Source: Bacillota bacterium
GTDB taxonomy: Bacteria > Bacillota > Limnochordia > Darwinibacteriales > Darwinibacteriaceae
Reading direction: 5' to 3'
Length of the DNA: 64,000 bases
Assembly: GCA_012838305.1 (NCBI GenBank)
Contig: DUPN01000092.1
Span: 5,315 to 69,314, forward strand
Positions 33,682 through 57,015 of this stretch are shown one piece after another. Below the pieces are notes generated by a model. That model saw nothing but the letters and a program-made list of their open reading frames with translations, did not search any database and was not told the DNA's origin. Both the position numbers and the translations under genes were made by a program. Numbering within the stretch: the first letter of the stretch is position 1; every line of letters starts with the position of its first letter.

Positions 33682-34533
33682 ATGAAAGTTGCCATTAGTA
33701 TGCGGAGTGTACAAGAGCCGCTCCTTCGGGGAGATATGCGTATCACTGACTTCATCAAATACGCCGCCAGTCTGGCCGTCGAAGGCGTGGAACTCGATGA
33801 CGCTTATCTAAGCGGGGCGGGCGTAGACAACGGGGAGATCCAGGGGATACTTAAGGAGACAGGACTCCAAGTATCCTGTTATGATATTTGTCACCAGATG
33901 GAGCCGCTTCAGGGGAAAGCACGGGAAGAGGAGCTGGAGAGAATCCAGGCTGAGCTGCTTGTGGCCAAGTCCCTCGGTGTCCGTTATGTGAAGGCCGTGG
34001 GCGGAGCCTTTGATTCTGGTGTGACTGCCCGCCAGGTGGAGGACCTCATCGGACAGCTTGTGGAAATGGTACTTCCTGCCCTGCAAGGCACCAATTTGAC
34101 CCTTGTGATTGAAAATCCGGCCAGTGTCAATTTTGACAGTAGGCATCTGGCCCAACTGCTTGCAGAAATTGACAATCCCCAAGTCAAGGCGGGCTTTAAT
34201 ATGGCCAATGCCTTCGTAGCCGGTGAGGACCCCGAAGCCGCGCTCGAACGTCTTAAGGATCAGATCGTCCATGTTCGAGCCGTTGATGTGCGCTGGGCTG
34301 ATTGTGACGAAGAGCCCCAGAGCGGCAGTTATGTCGGCTGTGTGGTGGGTCTGGGTCTGGTTCCACTGGAAAGGCTCTTCAAAGTACTGCGTACGCAAGA
34401 ATATGAGGGCTGGATTTCCCTGGAATTTACTGGTTTAGAGGATGCCTATTTCGGCACCGAAGCCAGCCTAAAGAATCTGCGCCAGTGTCTAGTCGCCCTC
34501 CAGTCCGAGGTTTTTCATCCCAGCGAATCTTGA
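33682..34533 (+). CDS. sugar phosphate isomerase/epimerase (xylose isomerase-like TIM barrel)
   Basis: 283 aa AP_endonuc_2-type TIM barrel with conserved E/H/D metal ligands. Confidence 0.75.
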   Translation: MKVAISMRSVQEPLLRGDMRITDFIKYAASLAVEGVELDDAYLSGAGVDNGEIQGILKETGLQVSCYDICHQMEPLQGKAREEELERIQAELLVAKSLGVRYVKAVGGAFDSGVTARQVEDLIGQLVEMVLPALQGTNLTLVIENPASVNFDSRHLAQLLAEIDNPQVKAGFNMANAFVAGEDPEAALERLKDQIVHVRAVDVRWADCDEEPQSGSYVGCVVGLGLVPLERLFKVLRTQEYEGWISLEFTGLEDAYFGTEASLKNLRQCLVALQSEVFHPSES

Positions 34534-42401: not shown

Positions 42402-43556
42402 ATGACAAAGAACAAAGAGATAGTCTTGGTTTTGCTGATTACCTTTCTATACCACACCATGAACCAAATGTTCGTACCCACCCTGCCCCTTTACATCAGC
42501 GATCGAGGTGGGGGAGAAGTGGTGGTGGGAGGGATAGTGGGTCTCTTGTCGGTTGGAGCGATTGTGGCTAAAGCCTATCTGGGAAAAACCGCCACTCGTC
42601 GCTCCAACCTTTTTGTGCTTAGGATCGGTTTGGTCACCGCTACCTTGGTCCTGTTTTTGTACCAACCCTTTTTCGGCTTCGCATTCTTAGCTTTGGTACG
42701 CCTGCTGCAAAGTCTCGGGCTCGGGGGGTTTGTGGTGGGAGCCCAGGGAATGCTTTCTGACCACACGGAGCGCCAGAATCGCGGTTTTTTCTTCGGCATC
42801 TTTGCGGCCATGATCGGCCTGGGTATGATGGCTGGTCCGTTGCTAGGGAGTTTCTTGGCCGAGAACCTTGGCTATCCCATGCTCTTTCGGGGGGCAACCT
42901 TAGTGGTTGGTTTGGCCGCTGCTTTGAGCTTTATGATCAAAGAGAAAGCCAATATGAGCGGACCTGGGATGGGCCGTAAGTACCAACCCCATTCCCCTTG
43001 GAAGAACAGGGAGCTCCTGGTATTGAGCGGAAGTATGCTGGTGAGCGCCGCTGTTGTCGGAGCAACCTCCTCCATGCTTACACTTCACGCCAGGGCCGTG
43101 GGGATTGCCAGCCCCAGTTTGTTCTTCAGTCTACTTGCCCTAGCATATACCTTAAGCGGTGCCGCTTGCGGACATTTATCCGACCGCTTCGGACGCCATG
43201 CCCTGATCATTCCAGGCTTTGGTCTTTTGATCCTAGGGCTATTACTTCTCGCTGGATTGAACGGGATGACCCTTCTTATTCTCGCCGCGGTTCTCGTGGG
43301 AGTGGGCTTTGGTTGCGTGAACACAGTACTGATGGCCATGGTGCCGGGGGTAAGTGTTAACGAGGTGGATACCGCCAATGATCTGGCCTTCTTCAGCAAT
43401 GCCTTCGATCTGGGAATTGTTGTGGGCTCCATGGGCCTCTCCTGGCTGGCGGCCAAGTCCTATGGTCTGTTTTGGCTTGCGGTGGCGGTTCTCAACGTCT
43501 TTGGGTTACTGTTATACGTAAGGTGCAATCCTAAGCAGCGAAGTGCGAGGGCCTAG
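42402..43556 (+). CDS. MFS transporter
   Basis: 384 aa, 12 TM, MFS signature GxLxDRxGRR-like loop (LSDRFGRH). Confidence 0.85.
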   Translation: MTKNKEIVLVLLITFLYHTMNQMFVPTLPLYISDRGGGEVVVGGIVGLLSVGAIVAKAYLGKTATRRSNLFVLRIGLVTATLVLFLYQPFFGFAFLALVRLLQSLGLGGFVVGAQGMLSDHTERQNRGFFFGIFAAMIGLGMMAGPLLGSFLAENLGYPMLFRGATLVVGLAAALSFMIKEKANMSGPGMGRKYQPHSPWKNRELLVLSGSMLVSAAVVGATSSMLTLHARAVGIASPSLFFSLLALAYTLSGAACGHLSDRFGRHALIIPGFGLLILGLLLLAGLNGMTLLILAAVLVGVGFGCVNTVLMAMVPGVSVNEVDTANDLAFFSNAFDLGIVVGSMGLSWLAAKSYGLFWLAVAVLNVFGLLLYVRCNPKQRSARA

Positions 43557-43578
43557 GTATGACCTGAGCCCTTGTTCT

Positions 43579-44835
43579 TTAGTTACTGTCTAGTTCCTGA
43601 ATGTAGAGATTGGCTTCTTGCACCGCATTGCGGAAGATTGGTTCAGGATTGACGTTGCCATACAGGGCTTCTTCTGCGGCCACACCAAGAATGCGGGAGA
43701 TGTCCGCGTAACTCACTGTGTTGGGCCGAGCCCTAGAGTACTCAAACTGATCAAGAACCACCTGCATGTACGGCTCACGCTGGAGGTATTGCTGGTAGGC
43801 GTGGGAGTCTCTCACCGAGAGCCTCAGGGGAATATAGCCCGTGGCTATGCTCCACTTGAGATTGTTCTCTTCGTTCGACATCCACTCCACAAATTGCCAG
43901 GCCGCTTTCTCCTTGGCTGGAGTTGTCTTGAATATGGCCAGACTGCTGCCACCGACGCCGGTGACAGTATGTTTATAGCTTGGAATCGCTGCCACTCCCA
44001 AGTCGAAGTCTACTCTGTCTTTCGTTGCTGCAATGGATGACGTGCTAGAATACTGCATGGCAATGCGTCCGGTCTCAAACCCCTCTGCGGGAGGAGAAAG
44101 GGATAGAACTTTGTGTTTGTGGGCCAGATCGATCCAGAACTGCGCTGTTTCGATGGCGGCCTGGCTGTGGAAGACAGCCTCTGTGTAGTCCTCACTGTAC
44201 AACTCGCCTCCTGCTTGCCACAGGAAGGTAATAAAGGCATACATGGATCCTAGGTTAGCTCGGGTAGTGAAGTTCAGGCCCCATTCATCAGTTCGCCCAT
44301 CTCCGTCCAGATCTCGGGTTAGGGCATGGGCGTATTCCACGAGCTCATCCCATGAGGTTGGGGGTTGCTCCGGGTCCAAACCAACCTCCCGGAACTTGTC
44401 CTTATTGTATAGAAGGATCTGGTTACTTAAGGAAAAAGGAACGGTCCAAGCTTCGCCACGTACGGTGACTGTGTCCCGGGACACTTGGCTGAAGTCCTGT
44501 AAATACTCCTCGGGGTTGACAAAGTGGCCCAGGGGCAAAAGGGCACCGGTGGCCACCATTAGGGGAGGCCAGAATTGATCCACCAAGGCGACATCAGGCG
44601 GGACGTTCCCGGCCACGGCCGCCAGCAGTTTGTCCCTGGTGCCAAACTGGTTTCCCGTATAAAGCACCTCCACCTGGATCTGGGGATGCTGGGCATTGAA
44701 CTCTGCCACCATTTCCTCATGAATTCTGGCGTTGTCCCCGCCGAGGTAATGCCAGTACGTGATGGTTGTGACATTGGCGTGGCTTGGTGCGGAAACAAGG
44801 ATCAAAATGGCAATAAACAGAATGACCTTTTTCAA
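43579..44835 (-). CDS. ABC transporter substrate-binding protein (extracellular solute-binding family 1), orphan
   Basis: SBP_bac_1-type sequence with N-terminal signal peptide. TTG 44835 with SD GAGGAG at 8 nt. The track start 44853 includes the SD. No adjacent permease or ATPase genes. Confidence 0.8.
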   Translation of the reverse strand: MKKVILFIAILILVSAPSHANVTTITYWHYLGGDNARIHEEMVAEFNAQHPQIQVEVLYTGNQFGTRDKLLAAVAGNVPPDVALVDQFWPPLMVATGALLPLGHFVNPEEYLQDFSQVSRDTVTVRGEAWTVPFSLSNQILLYNKDKFREVGLDPEQPPTSWDELVEYAHALTRDLDGDGRTDEWGLNFTTRANLGSMYAFITFLWQAGGELYSEDYTEAVFHSQAAIETAQFWIDLAHKHKVLSLSPPAEGFETGRIAMQYSSTSSIAATKDRVDFDLGVAAIPSYKHTVTGVGGSSLAIFKTTPAKEKAAWQFVEWMSNEENNLKWSIATGYIPLRLSVRDSHAYQQYLQREPYMQVVLDQFEYSRARPNTVSYADISRILGVAAEEALYGNVNPEPIFRNAVQEANLYIQELDSN

Positions 44836-45073
44836 CAGAATGACTCCTCTCAAATTGAACTTGGAGACTGAACAGAAAAAAGAGCAAGCTGAAATTCTTC
44901 AGGTTGCTCTTGACTTGCACGGCAAAGACTCGGATGCCGCCTACTCTTCTCTCATCCAGACTATACTGTCGGTTTTGGAGTTTCACCAAATCAGCCATCG
45001 TTTTGATCGCTCGCGGACTGTAACCGCCGGTGGGGAATTGCACCCCGCCCCGAAGAAGTTTCTATGCGCTTTT
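44836..45073 (-). ncRNA. candidate riboswitch-like 5' leader (cobalamin-riboswitch-like motifs; class not established)
   Basis: On the minus strand, after the promoter. Internally duplicated module GGGG-TGCAATT-CCCC-A-CCGG-CGGTTACAGTCCG followed by TTTGG-TGAAACT-CCAAA-A-CCGA-CAGTATAGTCTGG. GGTGCAATTCC and GGTGAAACTCC resemble the cobalamin GGTGAAAATCC element, and AGTCAAGAGCAACCTG resembles the B12 box (AGYCMGGAGACCTGCC) and overlaps the attenuator stem. Confidence 0.35.
44872..44910 (-). terminator. leader attenuator (intrinsic terminator) upstream of the solute-binding-protein start
   Basis: Minus strand: AGAGCAA-C-CTGAA-GAAT-TTCAG-C-TTGCTCT hairpin followed by TTTTTTCTG. Sits between the aptamer-like region and the SD. 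Confidence 0.6.
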
Positions 45074-45080
45074 CGGATTA

Positions 45081-45109
45081 ATTATAGCGCAGACCAAAAG
45101 GACAGTCAA
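45081..45109 (-). promoter_or_regulatory. sigma-A-type promoter (TTGACT-17-TATAAT) driving the riboswitch-like leader and SBP gene
   Basis: Minus strand TTGACT (45109-45104), 17-nt spacer, TATAAT (45086-45081). Confidence 0.6.
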
Positions 45110-45242
45110 GGACGACTGCTCTGCGTTTCCTGGGGTACTGGGCGGGAAGAGGCGGTTATGGCTGCCTCCCTTGCAGCGACCTCTAGGAGTAAGGCGGCGC
45201 CTCACGCAATCTTGAGAGACGCCTAGAAGGTCCCTAGGATGG

Positions 45243-45266
45243 AAAAAGGCCCCCGCAAGGGAGGCC
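45243..45266 (-). terminator. intrinsic terminator of the ABC exporter operon
   Basis: Minus strand GGCCTCCC-TTGC-GGGGGCC followed by TTTTTCC, starting at the TAG stop of the exporter gene. Confidence 0.75.
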
Positions 45267-47041
45267 TAGCCCTCTAGAAACTGGTTGGTATACAGGCGGT
45301 AATAGTATCCCTTGGCAGCCATCAATTGGCTATGGCTGCCCTTTTCTTCGACCTTTCCGCCACGAATGACGAGAATACGATCGGCAGAACGTACCGTGGA
45401 CAAGCGGTGGGCGATGATGAAGCTGGTTCGCCCCTTCAAGACCGTCTGAATGGCGTCTTGAATGAGCATTTCTGTTTCGGTATCGATGGATGAGGTGGCC
45501 TCATCCAGCACGAAAATGCTGGGATTAGCCAAAATCGCCCGGGCAAAGGAGATCAGCTGTTTCTGGCCCGTGGATAGCAGGCCGCCTCCTTCGCCCACCT
45601 CCGTATCGTAACCCTTAGGCAATTTCGTGATGAACTCGTGGGCGTTCACCATCTTGGCCGCCTCTTCCACCTCCGCGTCGGATGCCTGTAGTCTCCCATA
45701 ACGGATATTCTCTCTGATGCTTCCAGAGAAGAGATGAGGACTCTGCAGGACATAGCCCAAGTGGCTCTGCAGCCAGGAGAGGGGCCTCTCCCGGTAATCC
45801 ACACCATCGATGAGTACCCGTCCTTTAGTGGGTTCGTAGAAGCGGCAGGCAAGGTTGACAATAGTGCTCTTGCCAGAGCCCGTTTCGCCCACTAAGGCTA
45901 CGGTCTGCCCCGGTTCAACCTTCAGGTTAAAATCCGTGAGGACCGGCTCTTGAGGATTATAGGCGAAGGAGACGTTTTCGAATTCAATGGCACCTACAAG
46001 AGGTGGGCAGTTCCGGCCAAGTCCAGGTTGATCCTTTATCTCGGGTTCTGTGTTCAGCAAGCCCATGACCCTTTCGGCAGAGGCATGGGCCATCTGCAGC
46101 TCCGCAAAGATCCTGGCGATTTCCCTCACTGGTTCAAAGAACTGCACCGTATAGGAGACAAAGGCCACAAAGACCCCGTAGGAGATGGTTCCTGCCACGA
46201 CTCCATCACCCCCAACCCACAAAGTGAGACTGGTTCCAATGCTTCCCAACACAAGGACGATGGGTAGAAACAGCGCAGAAAAGGTGGCCGCTCGAATACT
46301 CGAGGCTCTCAGCCCCGAGGTGAGAGTCTGGAATTCCTCCAAATTCCGATCTTCTCTGCTCAGAATTTTGGTGGTTGTAGCCCCTATGATCCCTTCGTTG
46401 AAAGAACCCGTAATCTTGGAGTTGACGCGGCGCACATCCCGGTAGGATCGTAAGATCCTGCGCTGAAAATAGACGCTGGCTACCGCCAGGATGGGTAGGA
46501 TGCAGACTGTCAAAAGGGCCAATCGCCAGTTCATGCTAAACATTACAATGGAATAGAACAACATGGCCACGCCGCCCCACAAAAGATCGACTAGGCCCCA
46601 GCCCACAACGTCGCCTAGACGGTTCACATCACTGGTGAGCCGGGCCAATAGCCATCCTACCGCTCTTTTGTCATAGAACGAAAAGGACAGCTCATGGAGG
46701 TGCTCGAAGCCCGCCTGACGGATTGCGTAAGTGAGCGAGGTTTCTACCTTGCCCGCCATGTTAATAAAGAGGTAGACACTGGCACTTTGGTACAGCACCA
46801 AGAGCAGGAACGCCCCGGCGAACCAAATGAGCCCGTCGGTGTTTTGGGGAACCACAAAGCGGTCGACTGCAATTTTTGTCATGTAGGGAAAGAGGGCATC
46901 CCCTGCGGCCAGGGCCACTGACCCCAACATAGCGAAGAGAATGTAGCGCCTGTAGGGCTTTGCCAATTGCAGGATTTGCCGCCATAGTCTAACATCAATC
47001 TTCTCTTCGTGAATTTCTTCTTGCATCATTACCTGTTGCAT
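45266..47041 (-). CDS. ABC transporter ATP-binding protein/permease (type I exporter half-transporter, heterodimer partner B)
   Basis: 591 aa, 6 TM + NBD with Walker A GETGSGKST, signature LSTGQKQL, Walker B ILVLDEATS. SD AAGGTGA. Confidence 0.9.
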   Translation of the reverse strand: MQQVMMQEEIHEEKIDVRLWRQILQLAKPYRRYILFAMLGSVALAAGDALFPYMTKIAVDRFVVPQNTDGLIWFAGAFLLLVLYQSASVYLFINMAGKVETSLTYAIRQAGFEHLHELSFSFYDKRAVGWLLARLTSDVNRLGDVVGWGLVDLLWGGVAMLFYSIVMFSMNWRLALLTVCILPILAVASVYFQRRILRSYRDVRRVNSKITGSFNEGIIGATTTKILSREDRNLEEFQTLTSGLRASSIRAATFSALFLPIVLVLGSIGTSLTLWVGGDGVVAGTISYGVFVAFVSYTVQFFEPVREIARIFAELQMAHASAERVMGLLNTEPEIKDQPGLGRNCPPLVGAIEFENVSFAYNPQEPVLTDFNLKVEPGQTVALVGETGSGKSTIVNLACRFYEPTKGRVLIDGVDYRERPLSWLQSHLGYVLQSPHLFSGSIRENIRYGRLQASDAEVEEAAKMVNAHEFITKLPKGYDTEVGEGGGLLSTGQKQLISFARAILANPSIFVLDEATSSIDTETEMLIQDAIQTVLKGRTSFIIAHRLSTVRSADRILVIRGGKVEEKGSHSQLMAAKGYYYRLYTNQFLEG

Positions 47042-53631: not shown

Positions 53632-53690
53632 AATGAGGGCTGCGGCCCTTGTTTTATATACCCCTGCATATTAGGGAGGGAGGAGATGCT

Positions 53691-55067
53691 GTGAGCAGTC
53701 CCGTAGAGGTTAGGCCTCGGGTCAAGCGCTTTGGATTGGTTGGAAATCCTTTGGCGCATAGCCTCTCGCCTTTGATCCATGAGCGCATTATGGAGGCCGT
53801 GGGCTTGAAGGGGTCTTACGAACTTTTTGATCTAGCACCGAACGAACTACCGAGGGAGCTGCCTAGGCTTTTGGCGAGCCTGGATGGGTTCAATTGCACC
53901 ATACCCCACAAACAAGCTGTCATCCCTTACCTTAAAGATTTAGCCCCTTCGGCTAAGCTCTATGGTGCCGTCAACACCGTGTGTCAAAGCTGGGGGTACA
54001 ACACCGACGGGGTCGGTTTCGCCTCCTGCGGCGTGCCCCTGCAAGGACAGCGGGTGTGCGTTTTTGGGGCAGGGGGGGTTGCCCGGGTCTTGGCTATGGA
54101 GGCAGCGAGAGCCGGTGCCACCAGTATTGCAGTCCAGGCCAGAAATGCGGAGCAAGCTACGGGCCTGGTGGACGCTGTTAGAAAGCAGGGGTATGGGCAG
54201 ATCCACGCTCTGGCAGAGGGTGCAGACTCAACTTGCGATGTCATTTTGAATGGAACGCCGGTGGGTATGTGGCCCAATCTTGCCGGAACTCCTGTGTCAA
54301 ACCGACAGATTGAGGGGGCCAAAGCGGTCTTTGATACGATTTATAATCCCAGCGCCACTGGCCTTGTGCTCCGGGCAAAATCCAGAGGTCTTTGGGCCAT
54401 GGGCGGCCTGCAAATGCTGTTTGAGCAGGCGCTGGCGGCCCAGCGAATCTGGAACCCCGAGGTGGACTGGGAAAATTTCACGGATGGACTTAGGGGGGCA
54501 GGCCGGGGTTTAGCTCTGGAGGTGCTGCGTCGCAGCCCCTTCAAACTTGTACTCACCGGATTTATGGGCAGCGGCAAGACCCAGGTGGGCCAGGCTCTGG
54601 CCCAGAGATTAGGATCAGCACTGAACAAGTCTGCTCCATCCTTTGTGGATTTGGATCACAGGGTTGTGATCCGGGCAGGTCAAAGCATTCCGGAAATCTT
54701 CCGTTCCCAAGGGGAAGCAGCCTTTCGCAGTCTGGAAAGGGATCTGTTCGCAGAGGAACTGCAAAGGCCAGGTGCTGCCATCGTAGCTACCGGTGGCGGT
54801 ACCTTGATCCAAGAAGGCCTGGCGGAGATGGTGCGCAGGAGCGGAGGCTTCATCGTGTATCTGGATGTTTCCCTAGAGGAGGCGCTGCGGCGCATAGGTC
54901 GCGACGACCAGAGACCTCTGCTACAAAGGGGACCGGAGGAGATTCGAGTGTTGTATGATCTTCGCAAACCTTTGTATGAGGAAGCGGCAGATTTGCGTGT
55001 CGTTGCTGACGGCAAAGTTTCAGACATCGTGGAGATGATTATGACTGCTTTTCGTTGGAATGGATAG
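53691..55067 (+). CDS. aroE: bifunctional shikimate dehydrogenase / shikimate kinase (AroE-AroK fusion)
   Basis: N-terminal AroE (FGLVGNPLAHSLSP...NCTIPHKQ...GAVNTV; NAD site GAGGVAR), then AroK with Walker A GFMGSGKTQVG. GTG 53691 after GGGAGGGAGGAG. Track start 53649 rejected. Confidence 0.85.
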   Translation: MSSPVEVRPRVKRFGLVGNPLAHSLSPLIHERIMEAVGLKGSYELFDLAPNELPRELPRLLASLDGFNCTIPHKQAVIPYLKDLAPSAKLYGAVNTVCQSWGYNTDGVGFASCGVPLQGQRVCVFGAGGVARVLAMEAARAGATSIAVQARNAEQATGLVDAVRKQGYGQIHALAEGADSTCDVILNGTPVGMWPNLAGTPVSNRQIEGAKAVFDTIYNPSATGLVLRAKSRGLWAMGGLQMLFEQALAAQRIWNPEVDWENFTDGLRGAGRGLALEVLRRSPFKLVLTGFMGSGKTQVGQALAQRLGSALNKSAPSFVDLDHRVVIRAGQSIPEIFRSQGEAAFRSLERDLFAEELQRPGAAIVATGGGTLIQEGLAEMVRRSGGFIVYLDVSLEEALRRIGRDDQRPLLQRGPEEIRVLYDLRKPLYEEAADLRVVADGKVSDIVEMIMTAFRWNG

Positions 55068-55079
55068 GAGGCGGTGTCC

Positions 55080-56234
55080 GTGGCATCGAGCTGGGGTCAG
55101 CAAGTAACGATAAGTCTATTCGGAGAGTCCCATGGACCGGCCATAGGGGTTGTGATCGATGGTCTGCCAGCTGGTGAGATCCTGGATCTAGAAGCGATTC
55201 GTGGGTTTATGGCTCGGCGTGCACCTGGGCGCAGCCCATGGTCCACGGCACGGCAGGAAGAGGATACCCCCCAGATCCTGTCCGGAGTGTATCAGGGGAA
55301 GACGACAGGTACACCCCTGGCCATAACCATGGGAAACTTGGATGCCCGCCCCCAAGACTATCAGCGGCTGTCTTTTCTGCCACGACCGAGCCATGCGGAT
55401 TACACTGGAATGGTTCGTTTTGGCGGGGCCGCGGATCCCCGGGGTGGGGGTCACTTTTCGGGTCGATTGACAGCTTCTTTGGGTGCGGCGGGAGCTGTCT
55501 GCAAACAGATTTTGGAGCGAAGGGATATTCAGGTTTTTGCCCGCGTTGCTGAAATCGGGGGAATAGCGGACGGACCTTTGGACACGGTAGAGCCTGACCC
55601 AAAGGTGCTGCGAGCTTTGGCCGACAAAGAACTCCCCGTACTTGATCAAGCTGCAGGGGCTAAAATGGTGGCGCTGGTAGAGAAGGTGAGGGAGGAAGGG
55701 GACTCTGTGGGCGGTGTTGTGCAGTGTCTGGTCTTAGGGCTCCCCGCTGGCCTGGGAGATCCGATCTTCGGTGGGGTGGAGTCCCGCCTGGCATCCTTGC
55801 TTTACGGCATTCCAGCGGTGAAGGCCCTGTCCTTTGGGGATGGCTACGCCGCTTGTCGGCGCAGAGGGTCGCAGAACAATGATCCATTTTGTGTTGACCC
55901 GCAAGGTCGGCTTGGGACTCTAACCAATCATGAAGGAGGGATCAACGGAGGAATTACCAATGGTATGCCCCTCGTTCTTCAGATAGGCATCAAGCCAACT
56001 CCCTCCATCGCGCGTGCGCAGCAGACGGTGAATATCCAAACGATGCAGGAGGAAACCCTTAGCATTCGAGGGCGCCATGACCCTTGTATTGTACCTCGTG
56101 CGGCCGTTGCAGTGGAAGGGGCCGTCGCTATTTGCATCTTGGACCTTTTGTTGGTGTCCCGTGGGGTGCAAGGATTGGGGGGAGCGGACGATGGGACGAC
56201 TGGAAGACATCCGGCGGGAACTAGCCGCCATTGA
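55080..56234 (+). CDS. aroC: chorismate synthase
   Basis: FGESHGPAIGVVIDGLPAG and later conserved AroC motifs. GTG 55080 with SD ATAGGAGG at 8 nt. Confidence 0.9.
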   Translation: MASSWGQQVTISLFGESHGPAIGVVIDGLPAGEILDLEAIRGFMARRAPGRSPWSTARQEEDTPQILSGVYQGKTTGTPLAITMGNLDARPQDYQRLSFLPRPSHADYTGMVRFGGAADPRGGGHFSGRLTASLGAAGAVCKQILERRDIQVFARVAEIGGIADGPLDTVEPDPKVLRALADKELPVLDQAAGAKMVALVEKVREEGDSVGGVVQCLVLGLPAGLGDPIFGGVESRLASLLYGIPAVKALSFGDGYAACRRRGSQNNDPFCVDPQGRLGTLTNHEGGINGGITNGMPLVLQIGIKPTPSIARAQQTVNIQTMQEETLSIRGRHDPCIVPRAAVAVEGAVAICILDLLLVSRGVQGLGGADDGTTGRHPAGTSRH

Positions 56235-57015
56235 CCAGGCCTTGGTGGAGAATTTCCTGCGACGTATGCATATCGTGGACCAAGTGGCGGATTACAAGGA
56301 GAGTACAAAGGGCAAAGTCCACCTCCCTGAGCAGGAACGCAGGGTGATAGAACGGGGGCAAAGCCAGCTGCCTCCAGAACTCCAGTCCTATGGCAGGGTC
56401 TTCTTGGAGACCCTGATCCGCCTTTCCAGGGAAAGGCAATATGAACGTCTGATCGAAAAGGATGACACTTGGCAGCTGGGAAAGGCACTCCGGGAAGCGG
56501 ACAGCCAGCAAGGTCAGGTGGGAAAAGTGGTCATCTCCGGCGAACTGACGGAGGCCTCTGCCTGTGCAGCAAGGGGCCTGTATCCCGGTGCTGCCCTGGC
56601 TCAGGCAGGGAGCCTCGATGACGCCTGCCGTCAGGTTGTGAACGGTTTGGCCGATCGGGCCGTCTTGCCCCTGCAGGAAGAGGTCTGTTTTCTCCTGGAA
56701 AAGCATGCCCTGTTCATTCAGTCTTGCTCCAAAACGTCTGGCGGTCCCGTTGTTGCTGTGGGTAGAGAACTCATTCTCCCCATCGGCCAGGGCGTTGTGA
56801 GCCTTTTGATTCACACGGCCCGAGGGAAGGAGTTTCCCTTGGTGCTGCAGGTTTTGAACGACCTCAACTTACGGGTAGTACAAATCCAATTTCTGCCCGG
56901 CTTTTGTTATTGCCTAGACTTCTTGGCCTCACCGGATAGTCCAGTGATCCTCAGGGCCCTGTACCAAGTGGCGCAGGAGACGGTTGGCCTGTGCCTTCTG
57001 GGTTGGTATGTCTAG
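56191..57015 (+). CDS. chorismate mutase (AroQ-type) fused to a degenerate prephenate-dehydratase-like region and an ACT-like domain
   Basis: ATG 56191 overlaps the aroC 3' end; the track's upstream extension was rejected. CM domain MGRLEDIRRELAAIDQALVENFLRRMHIV. Next segment aligns to the PDT N-subdomain but lacks its catalytic motifs. C-terminus is ACT-like (VVSLLIHTARGKEFPLVLQVLNDLNLRVVQIQFLP). Confidence 0.6.
   Translation: MGRLEDIRRELAAIDQALVENFLRRMHIVDQVADYKESTKGKVHLPEQERRVIERGQSQLPPELQSYGRVFLETLIRLSRERQYERLIEKDDTWQLGKALREADSQQGQVGKVVISGELTEASACAARGLYPGAALAQAGSLDDACRQVVNGLADRAVLPLQEEVCFLLEKHALFIQSCSKTSGGPVVAVGRELILPIGQGVVSLLIHTARGKEFPLVLQVLNDLNLRVVQIQFLPGFCYCLDFLASPDSPVILRALYQVAQETVGLCLLGWYV

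Follow-up and report, generated by a model that had tools for sequence, protein, structure and literature searches.

An FMN riboswitch ahead of an orphan UgpB-like solute-binding protein gene in Limnochordia: a candidate flavin-uptake component split from its transporter operon

Most discoveries of riboflavin transporters in bacteria have come through linkage to the flavin mononucleotide (FMN) riboswitch, which correctly predicted the riboflavin transporters RibU, RibM, RibN, ImpX, RibXY and RibZ (PMC4418817). RibXY, in which the riboswitch controls the solute-binding protein (SBP) of an ATP-binding cassette (ABC) importer, stems from a transporter family that carries other substrates, and in Deinococci the FMN-controlled ribY gene for the SBP is monocistronic and stands alone, its permease being presumed to lie elsewhere (PMC4418817). 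RfuABCD of spirochaetes, described merely as related to the ABC transporter family, is a riboflavin ABC importer with a periplasmic binding protein, and an FMN riboswitch precedes the homologous operon of Spirochaeta smaragdinae (PMC4418817). Here we describe an FMN riboswitch ahead of a lone SBP gene of a different family, found in a 64-kb stretch of contig DUPN01000092.1 from a Bacillota bacterium of the class Limnochordia. This whole stretch is called the window; coordinates are positions in it, and both the leader and the SBP gene are read on its minus strand.

Like RibXY and the lone ribY gene of Deinococci, the window holds an FMN riboswitch positioned to control an ABC-importer SBP, and as in RibXY the transporter would have been recruited from a family carrying other substrates. 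The SBPs themselves are of unlike types: RibY belongs to COG0715 (NMT1/sulfonate-nitrate-taurine type), whereas the window SBP is of the SBP_bac_1/SBP_bac_8 type (COG1653, UgpB/CUT1 type), which goes with MalFG/UgpAE-type permeases, and flavin binding is shown for RibY whereas the window SBP is a candidate flavin binder only. The whole RfuABCD operon is under riboswitch control, whereas here the SBP is detached. RfuA belongs to another SBP family (BMP/PnrA type). With matches to SBP_bac_8 and SBP_bac_1 alone in Pfam, and nearest structures of the CUT1/UgpB type, the window protein is not a member of the RibY family and is probably no homolog of RfuA, judged by the family type of the latter. 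What it shares with the known riboflavin ABC components is an FMN riboswitch upstream of the gene across a clade, at 5/5 orphan-type loci versus 0/13 operon-type loci (defined below). The best curated matches of the SBP (UgpB) and of the permease (UgpA) come from UgpBAEC, the importer of glycerol-3-phosphate and glycerophosphodiesters, with 99 vs 411 bits and 131 vs 335 bits, respectively, against the equivalog cutoffs; unlike UgpBAEC, the present system has no pho-type regulation, and an AP_endonuc_2 TIM barrel takes the place of UgpQ as linked enzyme. Close structural neighbours (4mfi, 6r1b, 6x84 and 7c0f; 22–24% structural identity) are found among the UgpB-like proteins of Mycobacterium and Thermus, and the Thermus homolog binds dinucleotides, which shows that aromatic heterocycles carrying a ribose-phosphate can fit into this fold.

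The RNA resembles the Bacillus subtilis ribD leader (RF00050, transcription termination) in its six-helix junction, its junction sequences and its symmetric P2/P3 and P5/P6 helices, and it does not itself differ from other members of the FMN riboswitch family; only the regulated gene is unusual. The RNA adds nothing new, and the novelty lies in that gene, which encodes a candidate flavin-binding SBP derived from an operon split. No family-1 (UgpB/CUT1-type) SBP was found among the FMN-linked transporters of the 2015 survey (PMC4418817) or in literature searches, and these searches returned no paper that links an FMN riboswitch to Limnochordia or to sugar ABC transporters; a family-1 SBP is apparently new to the literature as a member of an FMN-riboswitch regulon. 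The full explanation favoured here combines an FMN-responsive OFF switch, an importer split between two loci and a flavin-uptake role of the SBP, and on the analyses set out below we assign it a probability of about 0.55.

In the Rfam 15 scan the leader scored 115.4 bits against the FMN riboswitch model RF00050, whose gathering score is 66.2; the E-value of 3e-26 for the window as a whole puts the match far beyond chance, the alignment spanning model positions 1–138 of 138, and this was the sole Rfam family above gathering in the 64 kb. All six helices form around the central junction in the cmscan alignment and the upper-case consensus stretches are matched. Judged by its sequence, the leader RNA is an ordinary FMN riboswitch, a new instance of a very common family. 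An earlier note on this DNA, made from the letters alone, had suspected a cobalamin-class element or, from an internal duplication, a new ligand class. The two parallel modules on which it relied read exactly as transcribed there: GGGG-TGCAATT-CCCC-A-CCGG-CGGTTACAGTCCG corresponds to P2 and P3 of the Rfam FMN consensus structure, and TTTGG-TGAAACT-CCAAA-A-CCGA-CAGTATAGTCTGG to P5 and P6. The GGTG(C/A)AA(T/C)TCC elements taken for cobalamin-like motifs belong to the FMN aptamer, as its conserved hairpins P2 and P5, and the AGTCAAGAGCAACCTG stretch likened to a B12 box is merely the 5' arm of the terminator. The FMN aptamer has a "butterfly-like" fold with near-symmetrical wings about a pseudo-two-fold axis (PMC7573352), and the apparent duplication is explained by this pseudo-symmetry; a new ligand class on that ground was ruled out. 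In a permissive scan of 601 nt (44700–45300) cobalamin, AdoCbl-variant and ydaO models gave zero matches at E ≤ 10, the remaining extra matches being at chance level, and no cobalamin-family model reached gathering across the window. The Rfam scan that the note had proposed upheld the riboswitch with an above-gathering match and gave its class as FMN, neither cobalamin nor ydaO. In favour of the cobalamin class there is the visual resemblance of the GGTGAAA-type hairpins and of the supposed B12 box and, by coincidence, a sub-threshold best match (65 bits vs 105) of the ancestral operon's TIM barrel, encoded outside the window, to CbiR; against the full-length FMN match, both the cobalamin, AdoCbl-variant or ydaO identities and a new ligand class can be set aside, their combined chance being practically nil.

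The pairing of riboswitch and SBP was followed through locus contexts taken from genome and metagenome collections and exact-protein look-ups, with SBP-profile scans yielding at least eight orthologous loci. The SBP orthologous group spans 42–99% identity in Limnochordia and other "Firmicutes bacterium" metagenome-assembled genomes (MAGs), after which identity drops to generic SBPs at ≤35%. Within the 74–99% identity group the FMN riboswitch lies directly upstream of the SBP gene in all five orphan-type loci, namely the window, L161 (84% identity), L001 (78%), L163 (76%) and L165 (74%). These loci share a synteny: an exporter pair or GntR gene comes first, then (except in the window) a small cupin gene, an interval of about 300 nt and the SBP gene, followed by a convergent major facilitator superfamily (MFS) gene, HlyIII and PAP2. 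At the operon-type loci (L002–L005, L081–L083, L167–L171 and L175; SBP identity 40–72%) the riboswitch was found at 0/13, of which 12 are informative, L004 being cut at the 5' end of the SBP gene. The riboswitch-SBP pairing is conserved. Where the flank suffices, the operon-type order is permease-permease-SBP-AP_endonuc_2 (TIM barrel), usually with a ketose-bisphosphate-type class II aldolase or DeoC, a Zn-dependent dehydrogenase (ADH) and SorC and/or RpiR regulators as neighbours.

As a separate observation on the orphan-type loci, a Cupin_2 gene of 116–126 aa separates the FMN leader from the upstream genes in all four relatives (L161:4370-4723, L163:4354-4704, L165:4344-4694 and L001:5286-5666, compared with window 45110-45265) and is missing in the window, where only about 155 nt separate the exporter stop from the promoter. 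Its presence in the four relatives points to a small deletion in the window lineage.

A neighbour-joining tree places the FMN-linked SBPs (the window protein and P0001–P0015) in a monophyletic group nested in the operon-type SBPs and sister to P0016–P0028. A search with the second permease of the operon retrieved a set of permeases of 269–271 aa (70–78% identity) that form one clade, a mirror image of the FMN-linked SBP clade, and the cognate SBP is absent in 3/3 inspected clusters of them. In L176/L177 the two permease genes are followed, after a 13-nt gap, by an intact TIM-barrel gene, and L178/L179 likewise shows permease-permease and then an intact TIM-barrel gene, with the SBP absent; a 419-aa SBP encoded 4 kb downstream of the L178 permeases was considered as the relocated cognate and ruled out at 26% identity. 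In L173/L174 the permease pair is followed by an 85-aa N-terminal remnant of the TIM-barrel gene (L173:7870-8127, L174:7376-7633), with 53% identity over 49 aa to the N-terminus of the intact AP_endonuc_2 gene, and this remnant shows directly, at the level of sequence, that the operon has decayed in one lineage. Most operon-type loci are flanked by ADH, aldolase and regulator genes, against 0/3 of the SBP-less loci. The simplest history consistent with these sequences is a single excision, in which the SBP gene would have moved once out of an ancestral permease-permease-SBP-TIM-barrel operon and come under the FMN riboswitch, the permeases staying behind.

SBP-less-type permeases are intact in many clusters (P0127, P0130–P0133, P0135–P0139 and P0143; P0135 on 98 contigs). 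The MAG DDZ66 holds both halves, with DDZ66_00515 corresponding to permease P0136 and DDZ66_10020 to the FMN-clade SBP P0007 (each 100% identical over a partial protein), and accession numbering suggests two further MAGs with both halves (NLL47336/NLL47731 and NMB21449/NMB20733). Because permeases that are conserved as an intact pair but lack an SBP depend on one supplied in trans, and because the two clades co-diverge, the orphan SBP most likely partners the SBP-less permease pair. It would still dock on these permeases, and FMN status would set the substrate capture of the importer. The SBP could instead have left transport altogether and act as a periplasmic flavin-binding, storage or shuttle protein, or as a sensor docking on a chemoreceptor or kinase, with the permeases using another SBP or facing loss. 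The monocistronic SBP gene without a linked permease in 5/5 loci, the decaying TIM-barrel gene in one lineage and the unrelated family-1 SBP near the L178 permeases would all suit such a role; since the SBP-less permeases stay intact in many clusters and co-diverge with the orphan SBP clade as working partners would, and the SBP has neither a sensor gene nor a chemoreceptor gene linked to it, we regard this role as unlikely.

The TIM-barrel proteins of the operons (L167:7321-8115 and L176:6824-7618 were scored) have as their best NCBIfam match CbiR, a cobamide-remodelling phosphodiesterase, at 62–65 bits (cutoff 105), ahead of sugar epimerases. From this sequence match the operon TIM barrel may act as a phosphodiesterase and not as a sugar isomerase, a function that would suit the Ugp-like SBP and permease. 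Every NCBIfam equivalog match of the TIM barrel, the ADH, the SBP and the permease falls below its cutoff, and the ancestral substrate may have been a sugar, a polyol-phosphate or a phosphodiester. The window has a separate AP_endonuc_2 (xylose-isomerase-like TIM barrel) gene at 33682-34533, adjoining a HAD hydrolase; the operon TIM-barrel protein gave no tblastn match to this gene at 1e-3. A c-di-GMP-I-GGC variant riboswitch (RF03167, 64–68 bits, gathering 59) was found near the SBP-less permeases at L176:4355-4432 and L178:4351-4428, between a CsgG/curlin-repeat cluster and a 164–166-aa open reading frame (ORF) directly ahead of the permease pair, and the partner permease operon may lie downstream of a different riboswitch-controlled unit.

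From the exporter stop at 45266 to the SBP start, the order of elements is terminator, promoter, structured leader, hairpin with U6, ribosome-binding site (RBS) and TTG start codon (Table 1). The consensus promoter with a leader of about 240 nt, the terminator hairpin with its U6, and the arrangement of aptamer and terminator expression platform with a promoter of its own ahead of an orphan family-1 SBP gene, all read from the letters in the earlier note, were borne out.

Table 1. Positions in the window of the elements of the SBP transcription unit and of the convergent neighbour gene.
Feature	Position	Strand	Remarks
Intrinsic terminator of the upstream ABC-exporter gene pair	45267..45247	-	8-bp stem with 6 GC pairs, then T-run; 5' boundary of the unit
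Sigma-70-type promoter, TTGACT-17-TATAAT	45109..45081	-	consensus match 11/12
FMN riboswitch aptamer (RFN element), helices P1–P6	45061..44940	-	Rfam RF00050
Linker hairpin GCGGCA...UGCCGU, between P1 and terminator	44940..44919	-	fold prediction
Expression-platform intrinsic terminator	44911..44876	-	14-position stem, one mismatch, loop GAAU, U6
RBS GAGAGGAG	44851..44844	-	8 nt ahead of the start codon
Regulated SBP gene, 418 aa	44835..43579	-	TTG start at 44835; SBP_bac_8 + SBP_bac_1
Convergent MFS transporter gene (context; ends the transcription unit)	42402..43556	+	Pfam MFS_1

The terminator hairpin, AAGAGCAACCUGAA-GAAU-UUCAGCUUGCUCUU (44911..44880), has 13 pairs and a single C.C mismatch, owing to which a simple terminator scan missed it, with a predicted energy of -13.8 kcal/mol and a U-run that extends to 44876. 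It is kept as GAGCAACCUG...CAGGUUGCUC followed by U5–6 in 5/5 leaders (-13.8 to -20.0 kcal/mol), lying 28–50 nt past P1, and among the five sequences one G-C pair is replaced by A-U in a compensatory way and several changes preserve wobble pairs. In the minimum free energy fold of the window leader, and in that of its 3' part, the P1 3' strand GAGAGAAGAGUAG has as its pairing partner CUUGCUCUUUUUUCU, the 3' arm of the terminator plus its U-run. The terminator itself appears in the centroid fold, and in all five leaders the terminator is still predicted when the P1 3' strand is sequestered.

On these folds the riboswitch would act as an FMN-triggered transcription-termination OFF switch on a single-gene SBP mRNA. 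The sigma-70 promoter would start the leader; with FMN abundant, the ligand would bind the six-helix aptamer and lock the purine-rich P1 3' strand GAGAAGAG onto the 5' strand CUUCUUC, the downstream hairpin with its U6 would form, and transcription would stop ahead of the SBP gene. With FMN scarce, the freed P1 3' strand is predicted to pair with the pyrimidine-rich terminator 3' arm CUUGCUCUUUU, and the SBP would be made. This anti-terminator pairing agrees with the FMN riboswitch family, in which, as predicted for the window leader, the P1 3' strand can pair either with the P1 5' strand or with the pyrimidine-rich 3' arm of the intrinsic terminator, the two competing for it. We read the element as an OFF switch because, by the usual FMN-riboswitch logic, a ligand-stabilised P1 permits the terminator and a free P1 3' strand competes with it.

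The five riboswitch-bearing loci compared (the window, L161, L001, L163 and L165) are distinct and closely related, and the four orthologous leaders score 117–122 bits against RF00050. Their alignment shows conserved promoter, aptamer, terminator and RBS and diverged spacers; the promoter TTGAC and TATAAT boxes are unchanged in 5/5, the GGAGGAG-type motif of the RBS is kept in 5/5, and the linker hairpin is predicted at the same position in 5/5 despite sequence differences. When the Rfam structure and the terminator are projected on the five leaders, 93.7% of cells pair, against 38–57% in slid registers, and pairing is complete (100%) in P2, in P3 together with its outer pairs, in P5 and in P6, which are helices 2–4, 6 and 7 of the pairing count.

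The SBP gene is monocistronic, its stop lying 22 nt from that of the convergent MFS gene, an arrangement shared by L001, L161, L163 and L165; the two stop codons are 14–22 nt apart in all five loci (gap 43557–43578 in the window), with no detectable intrinsic terminator or inverted repeat between them in any of the five. Given the absence of such a terminator, SBP transcription probably runs antisense into the MFS gene, and transcriptional interference between the two is possible. The short gap and the lack of a terminator in 5/5 loci would also suit a riboswitch that is a non-functional relic or that serves some other control, such as antisense read-through into the MFS gene. A relic would have decayed, and here the aptamer core is near-invariant and promoter, terminator and RBS are kept while the spacers diverge over 74–99% SBP identity, and at least 15 clusters have an intact SBP ORF; as for antisense control of the MFS gene, it would come on top of control of the SBP and not replace it. 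Both versions are very unlikely.

The regulated protein, a periplasmic SBP, has 418 aa and a Sec signal peptide, MKKVILFIAILILVSAPSHA, with no lipobox Cys. SBP_bac_8 and SBP_bac_1 are its only Pfam families (E about 1e-40), and the best curated match, UgpB (NCBIfam NF008211), reaches 99.1 bits against an equivalog cutoff of 411, which makes it UgpB-like in fold only. Its AlphaFold2 model has a pLDDT of 91.9, and the nearest solved structures in Foldseek and the PDB sequence search are CUT1/UgpB-type SBPs of 19–28% identity whose ligands include cyclic tetrasaccharide, glycerophosphodiesters, maltose, dinucleotides and others; an inference of the ligand from structure was dropped, the relatives being so distant and their ligands very different. 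In line with the earlier note, which saw no permease partner, no CUT1-type permease, cognate ATPase or catabolic partner was found in the 64-kb window by tblastn, and Pfam over 27–64 kb returned housekeeping genes only. The latter region also contains a single 472-aa ORF (53649-55067) that joins a shikimate dehydrogenase N-terminal domain to a shikimate kinase domain, set in a shikimate/chorismate cluster with chorismate synthase (55074-56234) and a chorismate mutase domain (56077-57015).

The importer is proposed to take up riboflavin, FMN or a ribityl compound related to flavins, under repression by FMN, because FMN-riboswitch linkage has predicted riboflavin transporters and because the ADH/aldolase/regulator module is unlinked from the permeases in the organisms of the FMN clade. 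Several results weigh against this proposal or the switch behind it. Covariation in the leaders is weak, with two compensatory pairs (one in P4 and one in the terminator) and 18/500 shuffles reaching the observed score, as a consequence of the close relatedness of the five sequences, and the anti-terminator is no clean conserved helix in thermodynamic predictions across all five. No FMN riboswitch was found on the partner permease operon in the SBP-less loci scanned. Among the nearest solved structures the ligands are oligosaccharides, glycerophosphodiesters or dinucleotides and in no case flavins, and we know of no flavin-binding relative in this SBP family. Substitutions specific to the FMN-clade SBPs are few (5–9) and all conservative (D52H, M132V, V198M, N214S and V379L), so that the pocket may, as far as the sequences tell, be unchanged from ancestors in sugar or polyol(-phosphate) catabolic loci. 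The TIM-barrel gene is intact in 2/3 SBP-less operons, which argues against a complete loss of the ancestral substrate pathway. A signature of pocket re-tooling by neofunctionalisation was also considered and is counted against by the same conservative substitutions and by the absence of a stem-branch burst, with 7 fixed changes on the FMN-clade stem vs 3 on the sister stem.

These points bear most directly on a second account, which keeps the RNA mechanism and lets the SBP bind its ancestral non-flavin ligand (a polyol, polyol-phosphate, ketose or phosphodiester), uptake being coupled to flavin status, for example as precursor supply for riboflavin synthesis from a pentitol or ribulose-phosphate source. 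The near absence of clade-specific SBP changes, the intact TIM-barrel gene beside the permeases in L176 and L178, and the ketose-bisphosphate aldolase, Zn-ADH and SorC or RpiR regulators of the ancestral loci are in its favour, as are the FMN-riboswitch-linked genes without obvious flavin role in the 2015 survey, such as a carbohydrate kinase and pyridoxal phosphate synthase (PMC4418817). On the other side, all transporters tested after an FMN-riboswitch prediction carried riboflavin (PMC4418817), a vitamin-cofactor sensor on a carbon-source binding protein is without characterised precedent, the ADH, aldolase and regulator genes are unlinked from the permeases in FMN-clade organisms, and the TIM-barrel gene has decayed in L173/L174. 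We consider retention of the ancestral ligand rather doubtful on balance, and a flavin-uptake role remains the favoured reading.

FMN is a 1-substituted ribitol-5-phosphate. It is a speculative thought that a polyol-phosphate pocket might accept FMN or riboflavin with little change, suggested by this chemistry together with the Ugp-like SBP and permease, the CbiR-like TIM barrel and the dinucleotide-binding Thermus homolog. That a CUT1/UgpB-type SBP represents a previously unrecognised kind of flavin (riboflavin/FMN) receptor, in a sugar or polyol-phosphate importer turned vitamin importer mainly by regulatory rewiring of the excised SBP gene and with hardly any change in the protein, is a tentative step further, to which we would give somewhat less than an even chance.

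If the SBP binds a flavin, the locus would reveal another uptake system for riboflavin or FMN, in the Limnochordia, poorly studied diderm Firmicutes that anaerobic digesters harbour in abundance. There would then also be a clean natural case of an ABC importer repurposed by an operon split, with only the specificity subunit placed under a metabolite sensor. If it binds no flavin, it would be a rare case of an FMN riboswitch governing non-flavin metabolism.

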